From sequence record OL960580: 64,000 nt of DNA; one strand, given 5' to 3'. Below the pieces are notes generated by a model that did not search any database, was not told the DNA's origin, and saw only the letters and a list, made by a program, of their open reading frames with translations. This stretch comes from Escherichia phage vB_EcoM_SA21RB. Of the stretch, positions 44,265 to 59,677 are shown piece after piece. The translations under genes and the position numbers were made by a program. Each line of letters begins with the position of its first letter. Position 1 is the first letter of the stretch.

Positions 44265-44272
44265 TATAAATA
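44265..44272 (+). promoter_or_regulatory. late promoter for gene 34
   Basis: exact TATAAATA 35 bp upstream of the gene 34 ATG. Confidence 0.6.
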
Positions 44273-44306: not shown

Positions 44307-47300
44307 ATGGCCGAGATTAAAAGAAAGTTCAGAGCAGAAGATGGTCTGGACGCAGGTGGCGATAAAATAATCAACGTAGCTTTAGCTGATCGTGCCGTAG
44401 GAACTGACGGTGTTAACGTTGATTACCTAATTCAAGAAAACACAGTTCAACAATACGATCCAACTCGTGGATATTTAAAAGATTTTGTAATCATTTATGA
44501 TAACCGCTTTTGGGCTGCTATAAATGATATTCCAAAACCGGCAGGAGCTTTTAATAGCGGACGCTGGAGAGCATTACGTACTGATGCTAACTGGATTACT
44601 GTCTCATCTGGTTCATATCAATTAAAATCTGGTGAAGCTATTTCGGTTAACACTGCAGCTGGTAATGATATTACATTTACTTTACCATCTACTCCAATTG
44701 ATGGTGATACTATCATTCTCCAAGATATTGGAGGAAAACCTGGAGTTAACCAAGTTTTAATTGTAGCTCCAGTGCAAAGTATTGTAAACTTCAGAGGCGA
44801 GCAAGTACGTTCAGTACTAATGACTCATCCAAAGTCACAGTTAGTTTTAATTTTTAGTAATCGTCTGTGGCAAATGTATGTAGCTGATTATAGTAGAGAA
44901 GCTGTAGTTGTAACACCAGCGAATACTTATCAAGCGCAATCTAATGATTTTATCGTACGTAGATTTACTTCTGCTGCACCGATAAATATTAAACTTCCGA
45001 GATTTGCTAATCACGGCGATATTATTAATTTCGTCGATTTGGATAAATTAAATCCACTTTATCATACAATTGTTACTACATACGATGAAACGACATCAGT
45101 ACAAGAAGATGGAACTCATTCCATTGAAGGCCGTACATCTATTGATGGCTTCTTGATGTATGATGATAATGAAAAATTATGGAGACTGTTTGACGGGGAC
45201 AGTAAAGCACGTTTACGTATCATAACAACTAATTCAAACATTCGTCCAAATGAAGAAGTTATGGTATTTGGTGCGAATAATGGAACAACTCAAACGATTG
45301 AGCTTCAGCTTCCAACTAATATTTCTGTTGGTGATACTGTTAAAATTTCCATGAATTACATGAGAAAAGGACAAACAGTTAAAATCAAAGCTGCCGGTGA
45401 AGATAAAATTGCTTCTTCAGTTCAATTGCTGCAATTCCCAAAACGTTCAGAATATCCACCTGAAGCTGAATGGGTGACTGTTCAAGAATTAGTTTTTAAC
45501 GGTGAAACTAATTATGTTCCAGTTTTACAACTTGCTTATATAGAAGATTCTGACGGAAAATACTGGGTTGTACAACAAAACGTTCCAACTGTAGAAAGAG
45601 TTGATTCTTTAAATGATTCTACTAGAGCAAGATTAGGCGTGATTGCTTTAGCTACACAAGCGCAAGCTAATGTCGATTTAGAAAATTCTCCACAAAAAGA
45701 ATTAGCAATTACTCCAGAAACATTAGCTAACCGTACTGCTACAGAAACTCGTAGAGGTATCGCAAGAATAGCAACTACTGCTCAAGTAAATCAGAACACC
45801 ACATTCTCTTTTGCTGATGATATTATCATTACTCCTAAAAAGCTGAATGAAAGAACTGCTACAGAAACTCGTAGAGGTGTCGCTGAAATTGCTACACAAC
45901 AGGAAACTAATGCAGGTACTGATGATACTACAATCATTACTCCTAAAAAGCTTCAAGCTCGTCAGGGTTCTGAATCATTATCTGGTATTGTAACCTTTGT
46001 ATCTACCGCAGGAGCTACTCCAGCTTCTAGTCGTGAATTAAATGGTACAAACGTTTATAATAAAAACACTAATAATTTAGTTGTTTCGCCTAAAGCTCTG
46101 GATCAGTATAAAGCTACTCCAACACAACAAGGTGCAGTAATTTTAGCAGTTGAAAGCGAAGTAATTGCTGGACAGAGTCAAGAAGGATGGGCAAATGCTG
46201 TTGTAACGCCAGAAACGTTACATAAAAAGACATCAACTGATGCAAGAATTGGTTTAATTGAAATTGCTACACAAAGTGAAGTTAATACAGGAACTGATTA
46301 TACTCGTGCAGTCACTCCTAAAACTTTAAATGACCGTATAGCAACTGAAAGTTTAAGTGGTATAGCTGAAATTGCTACGCAAGTTGAATTCGACGCAGGC
46401 GTCGACGATACTCGTATCTCTACACCATTAAAAATTAAAACTAGATTTAATAGTACTGATCGTACTTCTGTTGTTGCTCTATCTGGATTAGTTGAATCAG
46501 GAACTCTCTGGGACCATTATACCCTTAATATTCTTGAAGCAAATGAGACACAGCGTGGTACACTTCGTGTGGCTACACAAGTTGAAGCTGCTGCAGGAAC
46601 ATTAGATAATGTTTTAATAACTCCTAAAAAGCTTTTAGGTACTAAATCTACCGAATCGCAGGAAGGTGTTATTAAAGTTGCAACTCAGTCTGAAACTGTA
46701 ACTGGAACGTCAGCAAATACTGCTGTATCTCCAAAAAATTTAAAATGGATTGTACAGAGTGAACCTACTTGGGCAGCTACTACTGCGATAAGAGGCTTTG
46801 TTAAAACTTCATCTGGATCAATTACATTCGTTGGTAATGATACAGCTGGTTCTACGCAGGACTTAGAGCTATACGAGAAAAATAGCTATGCAGTATCACC
46901 ATATGAATTAAACCGTGTATTAGCAAATTATTTGCCATTAAAAGCAAAAGCTGCTGATACAAATTTATTGGATGGTCTAGATTCATCTCAATTCATTCGT
47001 AGGGATATTGCACAGACGGTTAATGGTTCACTAACCTTAACCCAACAAACGAATCTGAGTGCCCCTCTTGTATCATCTAGTACTGCTACGTTTGGCGGAT
47101 CAGTTTCGGCAAACAGCACATTAACTATTTCTAATACTGGAACGGCAACTCGTCTGATTTTTGAGAAAGGACCTCAAACTGGAACTAACCCAGTACAGAC
47201 GATGACTATCAGAGTTTGGGGAAATCAGTTTGGTGGCGGTTCAGATACAACACGTTCTACTGTATTTGAAGTTGGTGATGAAACGTCTAATCACTTTTAT

Positions 47301-48176
47301 TCTCAACGCAATAAAGCTGGGAATATAACGTTTAGTATCAATGGTACTGTAATGCCAATAAATGTTAATGCTTCGGGTTCTTTGAATGCGAACGGCGTTG
47401 CAACATTTGGTAGTTCAGTTACAGCCAATGGCGAATTCATCAGCAAGTCTGCAAATGCTTTCAGAGCAATAAATGGCGACTATGGATTCTTTATTCGCAA
47501 TGATGCTGCTAACACCTATTTTATGCTTACTGCATCGGGTGATCAGACTGGCGGATTTAATGGATTACGTCCTTTAGCTATTAATAATGCATCTGGTCAA
47601 GTAACGATTGGTGAAAGCTTAATCATTGCCAAAGGTGCTACTATAAATTCAGGTGGTTTAACTGTTAACTCGAGAATTCGTTCTCAGGGCACTAAAACTG
47701 CTGACCTATACACCCGTGCACCGACATCTGATACTGTAGGATTCTGGTCAATCGATATTAATGATTCAGCTACTTATAACCAGTTCCCGGGTTATTTTAA
47801 AATGGTTGAAAAAACTAATGAAGTGACTGGACTTCCATACTTAGAACGTGGAGAAGAGGTTAAATCTCCTGGTACATTGACTCAATTTGGTAACACACTT
47901 GATTCGCTTTACCAAGATTGGATTACTTATCCAACGACTCCAGAAGCACGTACCACTCGCTGGACCCGTACATGGCAGAAAACCAAAAACTCTTGGTCAA
48001 GTTTTGTTCAGGTATTTGATGGAGGTAACCCTCCTCAGCCGTCTGATATCGGTGCTTTACCATCTGATAATGCTACAATGGGGAATCTTACTATTCGTGA
48101 TTTCTTACGAATAGGTAATGTTCGTATTATTCCTGACCCAGTGAATAAAACGGTTAAATTTGAATGGGTTGAATAA
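44307..48176 (+). CDS. 34: long tail fibre proximal subunit gp34
   Basis: 1289 aa; internal 40-aa periodic repeats (TATETRRG..IITPKKL); matches T4 gp34. Confidence 0.96.
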   Translation: MAEIKRKFRAEDGLDAGGDKIINVALADRAVGTDGVNVDYLIQENTVQQYDPTRGYLKDFVIIYDNRFWAAINDIPKPAGAFNSGRWRALRTDANWITVSSGSYQLKSGEAISVNTAAGNDITFTLPSTPIDGDTIILQDIGGKPGVNQVLIVAPVQSIVNFRGEQVRSVLMTHPKSQLVLIFSNRLWQMYVADYSREAVVVTPANTYQAQSNDFIVRRFTSAAPINIKLPRFANHGDIINFVDLDKLNPLYHTIVTTYDETTSVQEDGTHSIEGRTSIDGFLMYDDNEKLWRLFDGDSKARLRIITTNSNIRPNEEVMVFGANNGTTQTIELQLPTNISVGDTVKISMNYMRKGQTVKIKAAGEDKIASSVQLLQFPKRSEYPPEAEWVTVQELVFNGETNYVPVLQLAYIEDSDGKYWVVQQNVPTVERVDSLNDSTRARLGVIALATQAQANVDLENSPQKELAITPETLANRTATETRRGIARIATTAQVNQNTTFSFADDIIITPKKLNERTATETRRGVAEIATQQETNAGTDDTTIITPKKLQARQGSESLSGIVTFVSTAGATPASSRELNGTNVYNKNTNNLVVSPKALDQYKATPTQQGAVILAVESEVIAGQSQEGWANAVVTPETLHKKTSTDARIGLIEIATQSEVNTGTDYTRAVTPKTLNDRIATESLSGIAEIATQVEFDAGVDDTRISTPLKIKTRFNSTDRTSVVALSGLVESGTLWDHYTLNILEANETQRGTLRVATQVEAAAGTLDNVLITPKKLLGTKSTESQEGVIKVATQSETVTGTSANTAVSPKNLKWIVQSEPTWAATTAIRGFVKTSSGSITFVGNDTAGSTQDLELYEKNSYAVSPYELNRVLANYLPLKAKAADTNLLDGLDSSQFIRRDIAQTVNGSLTLTQQTNLSAPLVSSSTATFGGSVSANSTLTISNTGTATRLIFEKGPQTGTNPVQTMTIRVWGNQFGGGSDTTRSTVFEVGDETSNHFYSQRNKAGNITFSINGTVMPINVNASGSLNANGVATFGSSVTANGEFISKSANAFRAINGDYGFFIRNDAANTYFMLTASGDQTGGFNGLRPLAINNASGQVTIGESLIIAKGATINSGGLTVNSRIRSQGTKTADLYTRAPTSDTVGFWSIDINDSATYNQFPGYFKMVEKTNEVTGLPYLERGEEVKSPGTLTQFGNTLDSLYQDWITYPTTPEARTTRWTRTWQKTKNSWSSFVQVFDGGNPPQPSDIGALPSDNATMGNLTIRDFLRIGNVRIIPDPVNKTVKFEWVE

Positions 48177-48184
48177 GAGGTATT

Positions 48185-49300
48185 ATGGAAAAATTTATGG
48201 CAGAGTTTGGACAAGGATATGTCCAAACGCCATTTTTATCGGAAAGTAATTCAGTAAGATACAAAATAAGTATAGCGGGTTCTTGCCCGCTTTCTACTGC
48301 AGGACCACACGTTAAATTTCAGGATAATCCTGTCGGAAATCAAACATTTAATGCAGGTCTTCATCTAAGAGTTTTTGACCCTTCCACAGGAGCATTAGTT
48401 GATAGTAAGTCATATGCTTTTTCTACTTCAAACGATACTACATCGGCTGCTTTTGTTAGTTTCATGAATTCTTTGACGAATAACAGACTTGTTGCTATAT
48501 TAACTAGCGGAAAGGTTAATTTTCCTCCTGAAGTAGTATCTTGGTTAAGAACCGCAGGAACGTCTGCTTTTCCATCTGATTCTATATTGTCAAGATTTGA
48601 CGTATCATATGCTGCCTTTTATACTTCTTCTAAAAGAGCTATTGCATTAGAGCATGTTAAACTGAGTAACAGAAAAAGCACAGATGACTATCAAACTATT
48701 TTAGATGTTGTATTTGACAGTTTAGAAGACGTTGGAGCTACGGGATTTCCTAAAAGAACATACGAAAGCGTTGAGCAATTTATGTCAGCAGTCGGTGGAA
48801 CTAATAACGAAATTGCACGTCTACCAACTTCAGCTGCCATAAGTAAATTATCTGACTATAATTTAATTCCTGGCGATGTTCTTTATCTCAAAGCACAGTT
48901 ATATGCTGATGCCGATTTACTTGCGCTTGGAACTACAAATATATCTATCCGTTTTTATAACGCATCGAATGGATATATTTCCTCGACACAAGCTGAGTTT
49001 ACCGGACAAGCTGGGTCTTGGGAATTAAAGGAAGATTATGTAGTTGTTCCAGAAAACGCTGTCGGATTTACGATATACGCACAGAGAACTGCGCAAGCTG
49101 GTCAAGGTGGCATGAGAAATTTAAGCTTTTCTGAGGTGTCAAGAAATGGAGGTATTTCGAAACCTGCTGAATTTGGCGTCAATGGCATTCGTGTTAATTA
49201 TATCTGTGAATCTGCTTCACCTCCGGATATAATGGTACTTCCTACGCAAGCATCGTCTAAAACTGGTAAAGTGTTTGGGCAAGAATTTAGAGAAGTTTAA
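48185..49300 (+). CDS. 35: long tail fibre hinge protein gp35
   Basis: 371 aa; synteny and length. Confidence 0.93.
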   Translation: MEKFMAEFGQGYVQTPFLSESNSVRYKISIAGSCPLSTAGPHVKFQDNPVGNQTFNAGLHLRVFDPSTGALVDSKSYAFSTSNDTTSAAFVSFMNSLTNNRLVAILTSGKVNFPPEVVSWLRTAGTSAFPSDSILSRFDVSYAAFYTSSKRAIALEHVKLSNRKSTDDYQTILDVVFDSLEDVGATGFPKRTYESVEQFMSAVGGTNNEIARLPTSAAISKLSDYNLIPGDVLYLKAQLYADADLLALGTTNISIRFYNASNGYISSTQAEFTGQAGSWELKEDYVVVPENAVGFTIYAQRTAQAGQGGMRNLSFSEVSRNGGISKPAEFGVNGIRVNYICESASPPDIMVLPTQASSKTGKVFGQEFREV

Positions 49301-49305
49301 ATTGA

Positions 49306-49330
49306 GGGAGCCTTCGGGTTCCCTTTTTCT
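49306..49330 (+). terminator. intrinsic terminator after gene 35
   Basis: gggagcc-ttcg-ggttccc followed by TTTTTCTTT. Confidence 0.65.
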
Positions 49331-49331
49331 T

Positions 49332-49339
49332 TATAAATA
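49332..49339 (+). promoter_or_regulatory. late promoter for gene 36
   Basis: exact TATAAATA 24 bp upstream of the gene 36 ATG. Confidence 0.6.
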
Positions 49340-49362: not shown

Positions 49363-50028
49363 ATGGCTGATTTAAAAGTAGGTTCAACAACCGGAGGCTC
49401 TGTCATTTGGCATCAAGGAAATTTTCCATTGAATCCAGCCGGTGACGATGTACTCTATAAATCATTTAAAATATATTCAGAATACAATAAACCACAAGCT
49501 GTTGATAACGATTTCGTTTCTAAAGCTAATGGTGGTACTTATGCATCAAAGGTAACATTTAATGCTGGTGTTCAAGTACCATATGCTGTAAACAATACAA
49601 ACCCGTGCGGTATTTATCCAGGTAACGGTGATAATGCTACTTTTGCTGTAGCAAATATCGATATTGTTTCGTGGAATGGTATTGGTTTTAAATCATCACA
49701 GGGTTCAGCAGCCCGAACTGTTGTAATTAATGCACGTAATGGTGATATTAGCACAAAAGGTGTTGTATCAGCTGCGGGTCAAGTAAGAAGTGATGCAGCT
49801 GCTCCTATAGCAGCGAATGACCTTACTAGAAAGGACTATGTTGACGGAGCAATAAATACTGTTACGGCAAATGCGAACTCTAGAGTGTTACGATCTGGTG
49901 ATACTATGATTGGAAACTTAACCGCACCAAACTTTTTCTCACAGAATCCTGCATCTCAACCTTCACATGTTCCACGATTTGACCAAATCGTAATTAAGGA
50001 TTCTGTTCAAGATTTCGGCTATTATTAA
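49363..50028 (+). CDS. 36: long tail fibre distal connector gp36
   Basis: 221 aa; MADLKVGSTTGGSVIWHQGNFPLNPAGDD... Confidence 0.93.
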   Translation: MADLKVGSTTGGSVIWHQGNFPLNPAGDDVLYKSFKIYSEYNKPQAVDNDFVSKANGGTYASKVTFNAGVQVPYAVNNTNPCGIYPGNGDNATFAVANIDIVSWNGIGFKSSQGSAARTVVINARNGDISTKGVVSAAGQVRSDAAAPIAANDLTRKDYVDGAINTVTANANSRVLRSGDTMIGNLTAPNFFSQNPASQPSHVPRFDQIVIKDSVQDFGYY

Positions 50029-50036
50029 GAGGACTT

Positions 50037-53000
50037 ATGGCTACTTTAAAACAAATACAATTTAAAAGAAGCAAAACCGCAGGTGCACGTCCTGCTGCTT
50101 CAGTATTAGCCGAAGGTGAATTGGCTATAAACTTAAAAGATAGAACAATTTTTACTAAAGATGATTCAGGAAATATCATTGACTTAAGCATTTCCGCTGG
50201 CGGTAATATCAGTGGAAATATCACTCAAACTGGTGATTATACACAGACTGGAAAATTTAATTTAATTGGCCCGCAGATTATAGCAAGTGGTGGATATATT
50301 GAGTTTAATTATCGTACTACTGGAAGTGGGGCTTGGTCCGGTCAACACACTGCAAAAGCTCCAATTTTTGTAGATTTAAGCTCAGCTACTTCCACATCTG
50401 AATATAATCCTATAATTAAACAGCGCTTTAAAGATGGAACTTTTTCATTAGGTACTTTAGTTTCTGAAGGTTCGTTAAAGATTCATTATATTGATGAAAC
50501 TGGTCAATCTAAATATTGGACATTTGCGCGCTCAGGTAATTTTCAAGTTGATTCTGGTAATTTATTAGTATCTGGTGGATATTTAGTCGCTCAGAGTAAT
50601 ATTGAAACAAGAACAGGTTCTTTGATTGGTCCATCTGTTGTAACTAAAAATATTTCATTTGATACGAAAGCGTTTGGACAATACGATTCGCAGTCATTAG
50701 TTCAATATGTTTATCCTGGAACTGGTGAAACAAACGGAATTAATTACCTTCGTAAATTCCGTGCAAAATCTGGTGGTACGATTTATCATGAATTAGCTTC
50801 TGCACAAACCGGAAAAAGTGATGAACTGTCTTGGTGGACCGGTAATACAGCCGTTAATAAACAAATGGGCCTTCGCAATGATGGGTCTTTAGTATTGCGA
50901 CGCTCACTCGCAATTGGTACAATTACAACAGATGAAAACATTAATAATTACGGCTCCACTGGAGCAATGGGTGAATGCTATATAGTCATTGGAGATGCCG
51001 CAACTGGTATATCATATAAAAGATCTGGTGTATATGATTTAGTTGCTAATGGTCTTTCTATCGCGTCTATTACTCCTGACAGTTTCCGTAGTACTCGTAA
51101 AGCATTATTTGGACGTTCAGAAGACCAAGGTGCAACTTGGATTATGCCAGGTACGAATGCTGCATTTTTATCAGTTCAAACACAGGCTGATGAAAACTCT
51201 GCTGGAGATGGTCAAACCCACATTGGATATAACTCTGGCGGTAAAATGAACCACTATTTCCGTGGTAAAGGAAAAACTAATATTAATACTCAAGAAGGCA
51301 TGGAAGTTAACCCGGGTATTCTTAAACTAGTAACCGGTGCAAATAATGTAATGTTTTATGCTGATGGCGGTATTACATCTGTTAAGCAGCTTTCAATATA
51401 TAACGGCATATATTTAGCAGCTAATAATTCTACTGCTGGGCTGACATTCGCTCCAACTACTACAATTGATGGTACTAAGCAAATCATGTGGGAAGGCGGT
51501 AAGCGTGCTGGTCAAAATAAAAGCTATGTAACCGTTAAAGCGTGGGGTAATTCATTTAACGCATCTGGCGATCGTAATCGTGAAACAGTTTTTGAAGTAG
51601 CTGACGGACAAGGTTATTATTTTTATTCCCAGCGTGTAGCCCCAAGCGGCTCAGAAACTACTGGTCCTGTTGTAACCCAGTTTGCTGGAGCTGTTAATGC
51701 TAGAGGAAGTATTATTACTGACGGAAGTTTTAAAGTTAATGGATTAAGCACTTTAGTCGGTAATGTTACCATGTCTAATGGTTTGTTTGTCCAAGGTGGT
51801 TCTTCTATTACTGGACAAGTTAAAATCGGCGGAACTGCTGATGCATTAAGAATTTGGAATGCCGAATATGGTGCTATTTTCCGTCGCTCAGAAAGTAATC
51901 TTTATATTATCCCGACTCTTAAAGATGCTGGAGAATCTGGCGGTATAAGTAATCTTAGACCATTGATAATAGAACTGAACACCGGCACAGTTAAAATGTC
52001 GCATGATGTTCATTTAGGAGATTCTGGATCTGGTACAGGATTATTACAAGTAAGTAATAGTCTTAAAACTATTAAAATGATATGTCCAGTAACTATTAAT
52101 GAACGTAATGCAGCGCTTACTCTAGATTCTCCTTCATCTTCTTCTGCTAATTATTTGCAGGGTTCTAAAGCTGGAACTAGATCGTGGTATGTTGGTCTTG
52201 GTGGTGCTGGAAATGATTTATCACTTTATAGCCAATCTTATGGACATGGTCTTGTTATAAGTGATAATTTCGTGTCAATCACTAAACCCTTTAAAGTCGG
52301 AAATGCCCAACTAGGAACTGACGGTAATATTACTAGCGGTTCAGGAAACTTTGCTAACTTAAACACCACGCTAAATCGTAAAGTTAATTCTGGATTTATT
52401 ACTTATGGAGCAACTGCTGGATGGTATAAGTTTGCAACAGTAACAATGCCACAATCCACTTCTACGGTCTTCTTTAAAATAGCCGGTGGTTCTGGATTTA
52501 ATAGTGGATTATTCACACAATGCAATATTGCTGAAATTGTTTTACGTACTAGTAATGAAAGACCTGCTGACTTAAATGCTGTATTATACACAAGAACAAT
52601 TGCAGCTGCATTTAAAAATATTGCAGTTAATAACGTCTCTGGAGATACATATGACATTTATGTTTATGCCGGAACATATTGCAATCAATTAACTTGTGAA
52701 TGGTCATGTACCGAAAATGCTACTGTTAGCGTTATTGGTATTAACTCATCTACCCAATCACCTGTGGATGCTCTTCCAGATACAGCAGTTGATGGGCAAG
52801 TTGCTAATGTTCTTAATAACTTGGTTGATCGCGGCAAAGTTAAGCGTTATGAAGCCGATTCTGAAATAGCTATTAATAACCAAACTGGTATTCGTATTAG
52901 AAGCAACAGCGATAAAACTGGTTCTGTTGCTACAATGCTACGAAATGATGGCAGTAGTTTTTATATTCTGTTTACAGATAAAAATGCCACCGATGGCGAA

Positions 53001-53819
53001 GCAACTGTTAACGGTGATTGGAATAGTAAGCGTCCTTTCGCAATTAACTTAACAACAGGCGAAGTATTAATGAATAACGGCATAGCTGTTCGCAGTGCTG
53101 CTTTATTCTATAATAGCATAAATGTCAAAGATAATGGTTCTATTAACTTTGATAAGTCTGGTGCTAACCCAAGAAATATGAGAATATTTCATGCTGGCGA
53201 TGCTTCTCGTGGTAACCGTATTGAAATTGCCGATGAAACTAACTATATTGCTTACTTTGAAAAAGCTCCAGGTGGAGCTAACCGTTTTGTAGTAAATAAT
53301 GCTACTGTAGCTGGTGTTAACCAAATGAATTCATTTGGTATTAATATCAATAACGCACTTGGTGGAAATAGTATAGCATTTGGCGATAGCGATACTGGTA
53401 TTAAGCAAAATGGCGATGGATTATTAGACATATATGCGAACAGTGTACAAGTATTCCGTTTCCAAAACGGTGATTTGTACTCATATAAAAATATAAATGC
53501 TCCAAACGTTTATATTCGTTCTGATATTCGTTTAAAATCCAACTTTAAACCTATCGAAAATGCACTTGATAAAGTTGAAAAACTTAACGGTGTCATTTAC
53601 GATAAAGCTGAATACATCGGTGGAGAGGCAATTGAAACTGAAGCAGGTATTGTGGCTCAAACGTTGAAAGACGTTTTACCAGAAGCCGTCCGTGAAACAG
53701 AAGATAGCAAGGGTAATAAAATACTCACTGTTTCTTCTCAAGCCCAGATTGCTCTTCTGGTTGAAGCTGTGAAAACACTTTCTTCTCGTGTAAAAGAACT
53801 TGAATCTAAACTTATGTAA
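50037..53819 (+). CDS. 37: long tail fibre distal subunit gp37 (long, T2-type) with C-terminal intramolecular chaperone-like domain
   Basis: 1260 aa; N terminus MATLKQIQFKRSKTAGARPAASVLAEGELAINLKDRTIF...; C-terminal SDIRLKSNFKPIE... resembles the S74 auto-cleaving chaperone domain. Confidence 0.92.
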   Translation: MATLKQIQFKRSKTAGARPAASVLAEGELAINLKDRTIFTKDDSGNIIDLSISAGGNISGNITQTGDYTQTGKFNLIGPQIIASGGYIEFNYRTTGSGAWSGQHTAKAPIFVDLSSATSTSEYNPIIKQRFKDGTFSLGTLVSEGSLKIHYIDETGQSKYWTFARSGNFQVDSGNLLVSGGYLVAQSNIETRTGSLIGPSVVTKNISFDTKAFGQYDSQSLVQYVYPGTGETNGINYLRKFRAKSGGTIYHELASAQTGKSDELSWWTGNTAVNKQMGLRNDGSLVLRRSLAIGTITTDENINNYGSTGAMGECYIVIGDAATGISYKRSGVYDLVANGLSIASITPDSFRSTRKALFGRSEDQGATWIMPGTNAAFLSVQTQADENSAGDGQTHIGYNSGGKMNHYFRGKGKTNINTQEGMEVNPGILKLVTGANNVMFYADGGITSVKQLSIYNGIYLAANNSTAGLTFAPTTTIDGTKQIMWEGGKRAGQNKSYVTVKAWGNSFNASGDRNRETVFEVADGQGYYFYSQRVAPSGSETTGPVVTQFAGAVNARGSIITDGSFKVNGLSTLVGNVTMSNGLFVQGGSSITGQVKIGGTADALRIWNAEYGAIFRRSESNLYIIPTLKDAGESGGISNLRPLIIELNTGTVKMSHDVHLGDSGSGTGLLQVSNSLKTIKMICPVTINERNAALTLDSPSSSSANYLQGSKAGTRSWYVGLGGAGNDLSLYSQSYGHGLVISDNFVSITKPFKVGNAQLGTDGNITSGSGNFANLNTTLNRKVNSGFITYGATAGWYKFATVTMPQSTSTVFFKIAGGSGFNSGLFTQCNIAEIVLRTSNERPADLNAVLYTRTIAAAFKNIAVNNVSGDTYDIYVYAGTYCNQLTCEWSCTENATVSVIGINSSTQSPVDALPDTAVDGQVANVLNNLVDRGKVKRYEADSEIAINNQTGIRIRSNSDKTGSVATMLRNDGSSFYILFTDKNATDGEATVNGDWNSKRPFAINLTTGEVLMNNGIAVRSAALFYNSINVKDNGSINFDKSGANPRNMRIFHAGDASRGNRIEIADETNYIAYFEKAPGGANRFVVNNATVAGVNQMNSFGININNALGGNSIAFGDSDTGIKQNGDGLLDIYANSVQVFRFQNGDLYSYKNINAPNVYIRSDIRLKSNFKPIENALDKVEKLNGVIYDKAEYIGGEAIETEAGIVAQTLKDVLPEAVRETEDSKGNKILTVSSQAQIALLVEAVKTLSSRVKELESKLM

Positions 53820-53821
53820 AA

Positions 53822-53838
53822 GAGGGCTTCGGCCCTCT
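53822..53838 (+). promoter_or_regulatory. stem-loop between genes 37 and 38
   Basis: agagggc-ttcg-gccctct hairpin; no strong T-run, so probably an attenuator or stability element. Confidence 0.4.
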
Positions 53839-53849
53839 AAGGATTTTTA

Positions 53850-54644
53850 ATGGCAATTGTAGGTGTTCCTGGCTGGATTGGCGAATCTGCCGTGAATGAA
53901 ACTGGACAACGCTGGATGGATGCTGCAATGAAAGCAGTTCGTGTTTCAGTTCCTGGTTGGATGAGCTCAATGGCTGGGCAATCTAAAGAAGTATATTACA
54001 GTATTGGCGCTAGTAATTCATATAATAAAGACACGCTAATAAATTATCTCAAATCTCAAGGTAGTACTCCTGTTGTTGTTACTATTACAGGAAATATTGT
54101 TTCTTCATCAGCTGGGCAACCTTGCTTAGATTTTCCTAGTTCATTAACTAATGCTTATGTAACGCTTATTATAAATGGTGGCGTAACAGTATATGGTCGT
54201 GGTGGTCGTGGCGCGCAAGCGGGAAACCAGGCAGGCCAAGCTGGCGGTACTGCAATTAACAATGGTATAGGTACTCGTCTACGAATCACTAACAATGGAG
54301 CGATTGCTGGCGGTGGTGGCGGTGGTGGCGCCCAATCAACTGATAATGGATGGGGAGGTAAATATGTTTCTGGCGGTGGCGGTGGACGTCCTTTCGGAGC
54401 TGGTGGCAATAATGGCGCAGCAGCCCCGGGCGCATCGGCATCTTTAACATCTCCAGGTGCAGGCGGAAAAATGTATTCCGGCGTTGGATACTACGGCGGC
54501 GATGGCGGTAACGTTGGTGAACGAGGTAAGGATGCGGTTAGATTGAGCGGCTATTCGAACTCCCCCGGCGCGGCTGGTAAAGCTGTTACTGGTAACGCTC
54601 CAACTTGGACTAAAGTTGGTACAATATATGGTGCAAGAGTATAA
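53850..54644 (+). CDS. 38: T2-type receptor-recognising adhesin gp38
   Basis: 264 aa; conserved N terminus MAIVGVPGWIGESAVNETGQRWM... then glycine-rich motifs (GGGGGGG, GGGGGRPFG) separating variable segments. Confidence 0.85.
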   Translation: MAIVGVPGWIGESAVNETGQRWMDAAMKAVRVSVPGWMSSMAGQSKEVYYSIGASNSYNKDTLINYLKSQGSTPVVVTITGNIVSSSAGQPCLDFPSSLTNAYVTLIINGGVTVYGRGGRGAQAGNQAGQAGGTAINNGIGTRLRITNNGAIAGGGGGGGAQSTDNGWGGKYVSGGGGGRPFGAGGNNGAAAPGASASLTSPGAGGKMYSGVGYYGGDGGNVGERGKDAVRLSGYSNSPGAAGKAVTGNAPTWTKVGTIYGARV

Positions 54645-54674: not shown

Positions 54675-55331
54675 ATGGCAGCACCTAGAATATCATTTTC
54701 GCCCTCTGATATTCTGTTGGGTGTTCTAGATCGCTTGTTCAAAGATAACGCTACCGGGAAAGTTCTTGCTTCCCGGGTAGCTGTCGTAATTCTTTTGTTT
54801 ATAATGGCGATTGTTTGGTATAGGGGAGATAGTTTCTTTGAGTACTATAAGCAATCAAAGTATGAAACATACAGTGAAATTATTGAAAAGGAAAGAACTG
54901 CACGCTTTGAATCTGTCGCCCTGGAACAACTCCAGATAGTTCATATATCATCTGAGGCAGACTTTAGTGCGGTGTATTCTTTCCGCCCTAAAAACTTAAA
55001 CTATTTTGTTGATATTATAGCATACGAAGGAAGATTACCTTCAACAATAACCGAAAAATCACTTGGAGGATATCCTGTTGATAAAACTATGGATGAATAT
55101 ATAGTTCATTTAAATGGACGTCATTATTATTCCGACTCAAAATTTGCTTTTTTACCAACTAAAAAGCCTACTCCCGAAATAAACTACATGTACAGTTGTC
55201 CATATTTCAATTTGGATAATATCTATGCTGGAACAATAACCATGTACTGGTATAGAAATGATCATATAAGTAATGACCGCCTTGAATCAATATGTTCTCA
55301 GGCGGCCAGAATATTAGGAAGGGCTAAATAA
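54675..55331 (+). CDS. t: holin T
   Basis: 218 aa; single N-terminal TM segment with large periplasmic domain; matches T4 T. Confidence 0.93.
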   Translation: MAAPRISFSPSDILLGVLDRLFKDNATGKVLASRVAVVILLFIMAIVWYRGDSFFEYYKQSKYETYSEIIEKERTARFESVALEQLQIVHISSEADFSAVYSFRPKNLNYFVDIIAYEGRLPSTITEKSLGGYPVDKTMDEYIVHLNGRHYYSDSKFAFLPTKKPTPEINYMYSCPYFNLDNIYAGTITMYWYRNDHISNDRLESICSQAARILGRAK

Positions 55332-57087: not shown

Positions 57088-57428
57088 TTAAACCATCCTT
57101 TAATACGCTGCCACAAAGTTTTCTGTTGAGCTTTGTTAACACCAATTGAGCGAATAACTGGTTGAGATTCCTGGAATTCTTTATAATCAGCAAGGTAAAT
57201 TTCGTAAGCCGATTGAACAAAGGTACTAATCGCTGCCATGAAGTTTTTACGTACACCGCCTGGAGCTACTCCGTTAGGCAATTCAGAATTTTCACGAATA
57301 ATTAAATATAACCCAGTTCTAACCTTAACAATAGTTCCAAGATAAGCTCCGTGGTACCAGATGTCCCATCCCTCTTGAGTGGGTTCTGCGCAACGACGAA
57401 GTTCATTGATAATTTCTAACTTGTTCAT
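57084..57428 (-). CDS. hypothetical protein (arn.x)
   Basis: 114 aa ORF. Confidence 0.55.
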
Positions 57429-57438
57429 TATTTATTCC

Positions 57439-58074
57439 TCACAGTTCAGATGCTACGGTGATTACTGCTTCAATGTTTTCTGCCGAGCGTTTAATGTCAA
57501 GATACACATTACCGTTTTTAGCGATTTTACATGACATTCCGATATCAGTAAATTTCTGAATATGGTGTTCCATCATTTTGTATCCAAAAATTCGCATATT
57601 TCCATTGTTGTTAATTTCAAAATTACGAATTCCGTGAGTGCGTTTTTCTAAAATAGCGAGATAGTTACTGCGGTAAGTTTCAACCTTTTTAAGAACAAAT
57701 CCATTTTCATCTAAAAGTTTTAACATGTAGTCTTTATCTTCTTCCATATCGGAAGTAATCTCACGAGCTTTACGAGTTGCTCGTTTTTTCAGCAGTTCAG
57801 GAGCATTTTCCTGCGCATATAAAGTTGCTGCATTTGAAATAATATCCTGAGCTTCACCTGTAATGATCAATCCATCACCAGATTTCTCCACCAGGCCTTT
57901 TTTAATCAATACCCCAATATTACTATTAACTACTGCGTTACCTAAATCTGGATGCACCTCACGAACTTCTGCAGCTGTAATGAAATCTTTCTTAGCAATG
58001 GTAATTAAAATCGCAGCAGTTTTTTCATTCAGAACATCGTTAGAAGCTTTGATGATGTAAGTTACTTTAGACAT
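57439..58074 (-). CDS. motA: MotA middle-transcription activator
   Basis: 211 aa; MSKVTYIIKASNDVLNEKTAAILITIAKKDFITAAEVREVHPDLG... matches T4 MotA. Confidence 0.93.
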   Translation of the reverse strand: MSKVTYIIKASNDVLNEKTAAILITIAKKDFITAAEVREVHPDLGNAVVNSNIGVLIKKGLVEKSGDGLIITGEAQDIISNAATLYAQENAPELLKKRATRKAREITSDMEEDKDYMLKLLDENGFVLKKVETYRSNYLAILEKRTHGIRNFEINNNGNMRIFGYKMMEHHIQKFTDIGMSCKIAKNGNVYLDIKRSAENIEAVITVASEL

Positions 58075-58104
58075 TTTCTAATCTCCGTAATTCTGTATCA
58101 GTAG

Positions 58105-58145
58105 TTGATAGTTGTATAGTACCACAGTATGCTTTGGTTGTAAAC
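58105..58145 (-). promoter_or_regulatory. early promoter for motA
   Basis: minus strand GTTTAC (rc of 58140-58145) with TACTATAC -10 region and shared upstream AT-rich module. Confidence 0.55.
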
Positions 58146-58160
58146 CGTTTTGTGAAAAAA

Positions 58161-58187
58161 TTTTTGAAATAAAAAAAGGGAGAGCCA
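58161..58187 (-). terminator. intrinsic terminator downstream of the gene 52 unit
   Basis: minus strand gggagagcc-tt-ggctctccc followed by TTTTTTTATTTC. Confidence 0.65.
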
Positions 58188-58202
58188 AGGCTCTCCCTAA
58201 AA

Positions 58203-58352
58203 TTACTGCATGACTGTGATAACTGTCATGATAACACGTTGAATTCCGAATGCAAGAAGACCTCCTGCTACGGCTGGAACAACACCTAAACCCGCCAGTA
58301 AAATGCTACCAGATACTAATGCAGCGCTTGTAATACCTATAAATGGACTCAT
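58203..58352 (-). CDS. small hydrophobic membrane protein
   Basis: 49 aa ORF translated by hand (MSPFIGITSAALVSGSILLAGLGVVPAVAGGLLAFGIQRVIMTVITVMQ); ATGA-coupled to the gene 52 stop. Confidence 0.45.
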   Translation of the reverse strand: MSPFIGITSAALVSGSILLAGLGVVPAVAGGLLAFGIQRVIMTVITVMQ

Positions 58353-59677
58353 TTGATTTCCTCTAAATCTTTGGTGTATTCTGTAACTACATCAGTAGTT
58401 TTCCAATATTCGTTTTCTTCTTTTTTAGCTTTAGCTTCTTCAGCAAGTTTCTTTGCTTCGTCAGAAGTCATATGAAAAATGTTCATTCCAACTAGTTTAT
58501 CAACATAAGAAGAATACATATCAATTTTAGAAAGTTCTTCGGTCAGTTCTTTGCGAGTTTTACCTTGTACAACAATTTCACCTGAAATTACTTTCTTAAT
58601 GAAATGTGCCTTGGCAAAGGCTAAACGAAATGCTGATTCAGTTTCTTTGATTTTGTTATCAATTCGTTTTTGGACATAAGTTTTACGAACTTCAACGAAG
58701 TCTTTGATTAAATCAACTACGTTATCGTAAACTTGCAGCTTTCCTTTCTCATTAATAACAGTAATATTCTGGGAACGACGCTCAATCAACCCGAAGTCTT
58801 TCATAATTTTTGCGTGTCGTTCTTCTTCATTATCGCTCAAAGAGTATTCTTTACGGAATTTAACTTTGAAGCCAAAACCGTGCTCACCGCAAGCATCATC
58901 CCACGTAATGAAGCCTTTATCTTCAAGCGGGTCTAAGATTTTACTCACGTAAGTTTCACGATCATACTTATATGGAATCTCAGTGATATGCATTTGAGTT
59001 CGTGAAGTAAACTTGTACGTTCCACGAATTTCATATTGACCGTCAATTTCAACGACTTCACCACGAAATTCTGGGAATTCTACCTTCGGTTTAGTTACTT
59101 TCTTTCCTTGAAGAGCTTGCAGTACAGCTTTCTTGACAGAAGAAACACTATGAGGAAGAATGTAAGTTGCATAACCAGTTGCAATACCGGAAACACCATT
59201 AAGAAGAACAGTAGGAATAATAGGCAAATAGAAAGCAGGCGGAATGTGTTCTTTATCTTGATGTACCGGAGCATATTCAGTATCTTTATATACGTTATAG
59301 AAATTTTTACTTACACGAGCAAAAATATAACGACTCGCCGCTGCTTTTTGAACGGTACGAGAACCAAAGTTTCCTTGACCATCTAACAGGGGAAAGTTAT
59401 TATTCCAAGTATTAGCCATCAAAGCGCCTGCGTCTTGTGCAGAGTTTTCACCATGATGATATCCAAGATCCGCTACACCACCTGCAATAGAAGCGAGTTT
59501 GTGAAACTTATCTTTATTTCCTCGTGCCAAATCAAGAGCTCGAGCAATAACAAATCGTTGAACTGGCTTAAATCCATCAATCATATTTGGGATAGCACGA
59601 TTTTCAACCGTGTACATAGCATAAGCCAATGCTTCATTATCAATGATACTTTTTAAATCGCGATTATTCAGTTGCAT
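58349..59677 (-). CDS. 52: DNA topoisomerase II medium subunit gp52
   Basis: 442 aa; active-site region RYIFARVS; matches T4 gp52. Confidence 0.95.
   Translation of the reverse strand: MQLNNRDLKSIIDNEALAYAMYTVENRAIPNMIDGFKPVQRFVIARALDLARGNKDKFHKLASIAGGVADLGYHHGENSAQDAGALMANTWNNNFPLLDGQGNFGSRTVQKAAASRYIFARVSKNFYNVYKDTEYAPVHQDKEHIPPAFYLPIIPTVLLNGVSGIATGYATYILPHSVSSVKKAVLQALQGKKVTKPKVEFPEFRGEVVEIDGQYEIRGTYKFTSRTQMHITEIPYKYDRETYVSKILDPLEDKGFITWDDACGEHGFGFKVKFRKEYSLSDNEEERHAKIMKDFGLIERRSQNITVINEKGKLQVYDNVVDLIKDFVEVRKTYVQKRIDNKIKETESAFRLAFAKAHFIKKVISGEIVVQGKTRKELTEELSKIDMYSSYVDKLVGMNIFHMTSDEAKKLAEEAKAKKEENEYWKTTDVVTEYTKDLEEIK

Follow-up and report, generated by a model that had tools for sequence, protein, structure and literature searches.

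Positions 50037–54644 of a 64,000-nucleotide stretch of Escherichia phage vB_EcoM_SA21RB (OL960580; the whole stretch is referred to here as the window) very likely encode the module that sets host range at the distal end of the long tail fibre in a T2-like Tequatrovirus. The module is composed of gp37, which would be cleaved near its C-terminal end, and gp38, an adhesin that would bind OmpC, and it is mosaic. What was observed directly is the order of the genes, the identity of their domains, the conserved motifs, the fold and the loop identities. The order gp34-35-36-37-38-t, taken from the open reading frame (ORF) list and Pfam matches, is canonical for Tequatrovirus, and more than 700 Tequatrovirus-like records match the 4.6-kb region. 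The best matches of the window across 24.5 kb are ~96% identical (96.2% for phage SP21535), and by this measure the window is a distinct T-even phage. The coordinates of the features are listed in Table 1.

By its sequence and modelled fold, gp38 is a T2-type tail-fibre adhesin. It matches the Pfam families PF05268 (GP38; E = 2.6e-72, 243.6 bits against a cutoff of 25, full length) and PF21721 (Gp38_N; E = 7.3e-18, 64.7 bits against a cutoff of 25). Among PDB sequences, it matches the PP01 adhesin (9v85, E = 4e-55) and S16 gp38 (6f45_D, E = 1.2e-45). Modelled with AlphaFold2 from 80 homologues, the protein reaches a predicted local distance difference test (pLDDT) score of 90.6. The model superposes on 9v85 with a template modelling (TM) score of 0.95 and a root-mean-square deviation of 1.0 Å, and on 6f45_D with TM scores of 0.81–0.86; no PDB folds other than these two were scored as matches to the model. 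The T4 gp38 chaperone shows no similarity to gp38 of the window (best BLASTP match E = 0.8 over 6 residues), and the two have no Pfam family in common. The first-pass annotation of this DNA had taken gp38 for the T2 adhesin and not the T4 chaperone, and the Pfam families, PDB matches and fold all agree with it.

The N-terminal domain of gp38 is the predicted site of attachment to gp37, which is encoded immediately upstream and bears a C-terminal S74 chaperone. Residues 1–45 are 96% identical to T2 gp38, and tryptophans W9, W22 and W37 are invariant in an alignment of 13 adhesins, including that of S16. A role of these residues as tryptophan "prongs" is described in the passage of PMC7917993 that cites Dunne 2018. 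The glycine-rich motifs that follow are all invariant in the alignment and separate four variable segments. This is the architecture that had been proposed from the sequence, a 264-amino-acid (aa) protein with a conserved N-terminus followed by poly-glycine motifs between variable segments. The GC content climbs to 0.48 within gene 38 because of the glycine codons. A proline-rich antisense ORF of 84 aa (54155–54409, minus strand) within gene 38 was rejected as the mirror of these glycine codons and not a gene.

The other protein, gp37, is 1260 aa long and ends in ...NVYIRSDIRLKSNFKPIE...VKELESKLM. The T4 protein is 1026 aa. The coordinates, lengths and peptide quoted in the first-pass annotation are exact, and its reading of the gp37 end as resembling an auto-cleaving S74 chaperone is upheld. 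Chance does not account for the domain matches of gp37 and gp38. The extreme C-terminal part of this trimeric fibre protein, aa 1162–1219 of 1260, is matched by Peptidase_S74 (PF13884; E = 9.3e-15; 55.1 bits, cutoff 22). The domain is present in gp37 of T2, T6, S16 and Sf22. It is lacking in T4 gp37, which has Collar and Phage_fiber domains; these T4-type tip domains are lacking in gp37 of the window. Among T2-type gp37 proteins, length varies from 994 aa in T6 to 1341 aa in T2, and the 99-aa chaperone domain alone does not account for the excess length over T4.

An alignment was constructed from the last 160 residues of gp37 of the window, FriedrichMiescher, Sf22, KRT47, T2, T6, K3, PaulHMueller, PP01, RB32, RB51 and S16. 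Residues S1162, D1163, R1165 and K1167 are invariant across all 12 C-termini, and VY(I/V)R, just before them, is almost invariant. In a phmmer search of PDB sequences, IRSDIRLKSNFKPIENALD of the window aligned to VSSDRRIKKDIKAFENPVD of the S16 gp37 construct in 6f45, which places the site opposite VSSDRRIKK of 6f45_A. The Pfam match, the motif and the PDB sequence matches together settle the identity of the S74 domain. A profile of the alignment also matches the phage tail fibre 8jov_1 and, with E = 6e-10, the homologous domain of MYRF (7dc3); its match to S16 gp37 is by construction, S16 being a row of the query alignment.

S16 gp37 is cleaved at DLNVS^SDRRIKK, which removes a 113-residue chaperone and exposes the docking surface for gp38, and the fPS phages of Yersinia have a predicted site at DVYIR^SDGRLKI (PMC7917993). 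The window reads NVYIR^SDIRLKS at this position, from which a cut between R1161 and S1162 is predicted that would free a 99-residue chaperone. S1162 and K1167 form a Ser/Lys(i+5) pair at the domain boundary, the geometry of the Ser1264/Lys1269 autocleavage mechanism of T5 pb1 (PMC4690869). Over the last 160 aa, identity to T2 gp37 is 96%. The C-termini of T2 and T6 gp37 are proteolytically cleaved according to Trojet 2011 (PMC3157838), which cites Drexler 1986 on the processing of the T2 protein.

In the proposed mechanism, gp37 would be made as a 1260-aa precursor whose 99-residue S74 domain helps the trimeric fibre tip to fold. After trimerisation, the domain would remove itself by Ser1162/Lys1167 autoproteolysis at the predicted site. 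The tip would be left ending in ...NVYIR, where gp38 would dock through its Trp-bearing N-terminal domain. The polyglycine-II sandwich of gp38 would then present the variable loops for binding to a protein of the outer membrane, most likely OmpC. Cleavage, docking and OmpC binding are modelled here on homologues. In the literature, the gp38 adhesin is monomeric. In T2-like phages it is reported to help in assembly and then to stay at the fibre tip (PMC7917993).

The four hypervariable segments (HVSs) of gp38, with boundaries placed by eye on the gp38 alignment, can be sorted by their identity to reference adhesins. Pooled HVS identity is 96% to Sf22 and KRT47, 50% to PP01, and 17–26% to the Tsx, OmpA, OmpF and FadL adhesins and S16. 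Singly, the values are 24% for FriedrichMiescher, 24% for JK38, 21% for T6, 26% for TadeuszReichstein, 24% for T2, 23% for M1 and 17% for S16. Over its whole length, gp38 is 97–98.5% identical to Sf22 and KRT47. M1, an OmpA phage, stood in as the classical OmpA representative, K3 was represented by gene 37 only, and the receptor comparison was made without K3 and Ox2 gp38.

The receptors of the reference adhesins are FadL/OmpF for T2, Tsx for T6, OmpA for RB32 and OmpF for RB51 (PMC3157838); Tsx for FriedrichMiescher (Bas39) and TadeuszReichstein and OmpA for PaulHMueller (BASEL supplementary table); Tsx for JK38 (bioRxiv 10.64898/2026.04.02.716166); and OmpC of E. coli O157 for PP01 and Salmonella OmpC for S16 (PMC12892980). 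The Shigella phages Sf22 and KRT47 are OmpC-dependent per Tinney 2022, as that work is cited in PMC12892980 and PMC11654681. Closely related gp38 specificity domains go with the same receptor (PMC12032242; PMC3157838), and swapping the HVS region switches the receptor (PMC3157838; bioRxiv 10.64898/2026.04.02.716166). The near identity of the gp38 loops to those of Sf22 and KRT47 thus makes OmpC of Shigella/E. coli the probable receptor. The first-pass annotation had placed specificity in the variable loops, in agreement with these swaps and with published mutagenesis (PMC12892980), and had proposed aligning them to classical adhesins. The alignment points to OmpC through Sf22, KRT47 and PP01, which were absent from its list. 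The classical references T2 and T6 contribute HVS identities of only 21–24%, and the informative references are the three OmpC adhesins.

Seven positions of PP01 gp38 were mapped onto the window, and the same residue is found at five of them (K171, Y172, G213, Y214 and Y235). Residues K171, Y172, Y214 and Y235 correspond to K168, Y169, Y209 and Y230 of PP01, and S233 corresponds to A228, also a small residue. In PP01, mutation of Y209, A228 or Y230 lost infectivity, G208 was dispensable, and K168/Y169 of loop B were linked only to a possible contact with lipopolysaccharide (LPS) sugar (PMC12892980).

The module is a mosaic. Gene 37 is 97.5% identical at the nucleotide level to that of the Escherichia phages FriedrichMiescher and teqhal. 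By sliding identity, the shaft tracks FriedrichMiescher almost throughout, Sf22 in the distal third only, and KRT47 and T2 in patches only. About 90 nucleotides into gene 38, informative sites change from FriedrichMiescher-like upstream to Sf22/KRT47-like downstream. Within gene 38, a short patch (54089–54113) goes back to FriedrichMiescher-like sites, which points to repeated recombination or gene conversion. The C-terminus of gp37 and the N-terminus of gp38 are both of the T2/K3 subtype, which fits the "lock-and-key" pairing of these proteins (Trojet 2011, PMC3157838).

A block of 5,060 base pairs that takes in the 3' end of gene 36, all of gene 37 and the greater part of gene 38 is shared with Shigella phage SP21535 (PQ615101) with only two mismatches (positions 50212 and 53667), whereas the flanks are ~4% divergent. 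This difference suggests that the whole distal-fibre cassette was exchanged horizontally, and recently. Such shuffling at the distal-fibre locus is well documented (Trojet 2011, PMC3157838). Genes 37 and 38 are labelled just "hypothetical protein" in the PQ615101 record, and no mention of phage SP21535 was found in the literature. Elsewhere, SP21535 is locally only 88% identical, at ~57237–57636 and 58037–58436, and identity collapses beyond ~60037; these low-identity stretches 3' of motA may be variable or inserted early-region genes.

Two alternatives concern the roles of the proteins. It is extremely improbable that gp38 is an assembly chaperone only, as in T4, with gp37 binding the receptor. 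Some records do label homologues "distal long tail fiber assembly catalyst", and a role in assembly is reported for T2-like gp38 as well (PMC7917993). However, gp38 has no similarity to T4 gp38, its modelled fold equals that of solved receptor-binding adhesins, and gp37 has S74 in place of the Collar/Phage_fiber tip. Retention of the S74-like domain, uncleaved, as a structural part of the fibre tip is very unlikely. A single-sequence AlphaFold2 model of the domain reached a pLDDT of 55 and was discarded, and this low confidence counts against predicted cleavage. Set against it are the invariance of the Ser/Lys pair and flanking motif, the near identity to T2 gp37, which is described as cleaved (PMC3157838), and the exposure of the gp38 docking surface by cleavage in S16 (PMC7917993).

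The remaining alternatives concern the receptor. The shaft and the first 90 nucleotides of gene 38 belong to the FriedrichMiescher lineage; that phage is Tsx-dependent (BASEL), and Tsx might be expected on this ground. Specificity, however, maps to the gp38 HVSs and not to the shaft (PMC3157838; bioRxiv 10.64898/2026.04.02.716166). The lineage switch at ~53936 precedes all HVSs, and these are 21–26% identical to the Tsx adhesins against 96% to Sf22/KRT47, so that a Tsx receptor has very little probability. An unlikely reading, though well ahead of Tsx, is that a second receptor, such as an LPS core sugar, acts beside OmpC or can stand in for it, or that loop substitutions shift recognition to another OmpC allele or porin. 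Several gp38 phages require two receptors (PMC3157838), and the residues with suggested LPS sugar contacts in PP01 are kept as K171/Y172.

Several differences weigh against a simple assignment to OmpC, and some of them speak for a shifted specificity. PP01 Y159, which is required for PP01 infectivity, is Q162 in the window. The loop regions differ from KRT47 gp38 by Q130E, A191K and S233N (window residue first). Residue 233 (nucleotides 54546–54548), at the predicted tip of loop E, is Ser in the window and SP21535 and Asn in Sf22/KRT47, and at the equivalent loop-E tip of PP01 a polar substitution or deletion of A228 abolished infection (PMC12892980). In RB68, a single HVS substitution, Q206L, switches the receptor from OmpF to OmpW (bioRxiv 10.64898/2026.04.02.716166); since single substitutions can do so, 96% loop identity is no proof of receptor. 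Six metagenomic homologues (P0001–P0006, 77–99% identical) form a small clade with differences clustered in the same loops. Against a second or shifted receptor, the isolation host of SP21535, whose HVSs are identical, was Shigella sonnei, and Sf22 and KRT47 also infect Shigella. OmpC remains the favoured receptor. A tentative extension is that the cassette was acquired very recently and is itself a chimera of a Tsx-lineage shaft and an OmpC-type specificity domain, in which S233, Q130 and A191 could retune recognition of OmpC alleles or of Shigella/E. coli strains. If true, it would be a natural example of diversification among OmpC-type gp38 adhesins.

Table 1. Features of the distal tail-fibre locus and its surroundings (window coordinates).
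Feature	Position (nt)	Strand	Residues or size	Basis or remark
gp34	44307–48176	+	1289 aa	Gp34 domains (Pfam)
gp35, hinge protein	48185–49300	+	371 aa	
T4-type late-promoter consensus TATAAATA	49332–49339	+		Exact match, 24 nt 5' of gp36 start (49363)
gp36, small distal half-fibre subunit, joins gp35 to gp37	49363–50028	+	221 aa	Phage_T4_gp36, E = 1.8e-43
Block shared with SP21535 (3' gene 36, gene 37, most of gene 38)	49503–54562	+	5,060 bp	Alignment
gp37, whole ORF	50037–53819	+	1260 aa	
Mature gp37, trimeric distal fibre shaft (predicted)	50037–53519	+	aa 1–1161	ORF, Pfam
Predicted autocleavage site NVYIR^SDIRLK	53505–53537	+	aa 1157–1167	Alignment with S16 site
Peptidase_S74 intramolecular chaperone domain	53520–53819	+	aa 1162–1260 (99 aa + stop)	Pfam PF13884
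Intergenic hairpin, genes 37/38	53821–53838	+	7-bp stem, UUCG loop	-13.4 kcal/mol, z = -2.6
gp38 adhesin, T2 type	53850–54644	+	264 aa	Pfam, PDB matches, AlphaFold2 model
gp38 N-terminal gp37-attachment domain	53850–53975	+	aa 1–42	Gp38_N, E = 7.3e-18
Approximate recombination junction in gene 38	53936–53939	+	~90 nt into gene	Informative sites, sliding identity
gp38 specificity region (glycine-rich motifs 1–4, HVS1–4)	54195–54566	+		Alignment segment table
HVS1	54213–54242	+	aa 122–131	Alignment
HVS2	54330–54371	+	aa 161–174	Alignment
HVS3	54408–54497	+	aa 187–216	Alignment
HVS4	54519–54566	+	aa 224–239	Alignment
Holin t, downstream neighbour completing the conserved order	54675–55331	+	218 aa	Phage_holin_T, E = 4.7e-117

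The shaft of gp37 contains two further Pfam segments. One is Gp34_trimer-like (aa 508–645, nucleotides 51558–51971) and similar to solved gp34 C-terminal structures, and the other is a gp37_trimer segment (aa 694–766, nucleotides 52116–52334). A Gp34_trimer domain is also present in gp34 (aa 981–1092, nucleotides 47247–47582), a paralogous stretch common to the proximal and distal half-fibres. In gp35, aa 58–126 match the Pfam family ILEI (PF15711, "Interleukin-like EMT inducer"; E = 3.4e-8, above the curated cutoff), an unexpected label on a phage fibre hinge.

The sequence TATAAATA is the established T4 late-promoter motif. The copy upstream of gp36 is the probable start of a 36-37-38 late transcript, and a second copy lies at 44265, 5' of gp34. 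The count of the motif across the window is not above chance. A scan for sigma-70 promoters found 28 where 24 were expected from shuffling, which is not above expectation, and its output was not used. The hairpin between genes 37 and 38 overlaps a possible Shine-Dalgarno sequence/ribosome-binding site of gene 38. In the K3 record X04747, the annotation of the corresponding element reads stem-loop, possible terminator and rRNA binding site. Both this hairpin and another are stable UUCG-tetraloop structures; the other is located 3' of gp35, in the gp35/gp36 intergenic region (49304–49325, -15.1 kcal/mol).

T2-type gp37 processing, the S74 chaperone, the polyglycine adhesin gp38 and HVS-based receptor prediction are all already published. 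The module conforms to the T2/S16/PP01 model, a near-identical cassette is already deposited, and no new mechanism is involved. What is added here is the receptor call (OmpC) and the description of the mosaic. The practical use is that the receptor and the probable hosts (the Shigella/E. coli group) are predicted from sequence alone, which is useful for the design of phage cocktails and for foreseeing resistance via ompC mutations.

Among known systems, SP21535 is the closest, with 99.8% nucleotide identity over 50037–54644 and gp38 one residue apart (A262S). The rest of its genome is ~96% identical, which makes the window a different phage with the same cassette. Sf22 and KRT47 have gp38 of the same length, with the same T2/K3-type N-terminal domain and nearly the same HVSs, but their gp37 shafts (1229 aa in Sf22 and ~1276 aa in KRT47) are largely different, many segments having 30–60% nucleotide identity. 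PP01 gp38 (9v85) has the same fold and 54% identity, and HVS2 and HVS3 are clearly related, whereas HVS1 and HVS4 are 20% and 38% identical and the gp37 C-terminus only 26%.

The gp37-gp38 tip of S16 (6f45) shares the S74 chaperone, bounded by SDxRxK, and the gp38 plan of Trp-bearing N-terminal domain, β-helix and polyglycine-II sandwich. S16 belongs to a different genus, Gelderlandvirus, and its gp38 is 44–47% identical. Its tip ends in ...DLNVS after loss of its longer chaperone, as against the predicted ...NVYIR of the window. T2 has the same "lock and key" attachment subtype but a longer gp37, and its receptor would differ from that of the window because the HVSs are only 24% identical. 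T4 has the same locus position and the same gp34–36 partners, but its gp37 has a Collar/Phage_fiber receptor-binding tip without S74, and its gp38 is an unrelated chaperone.

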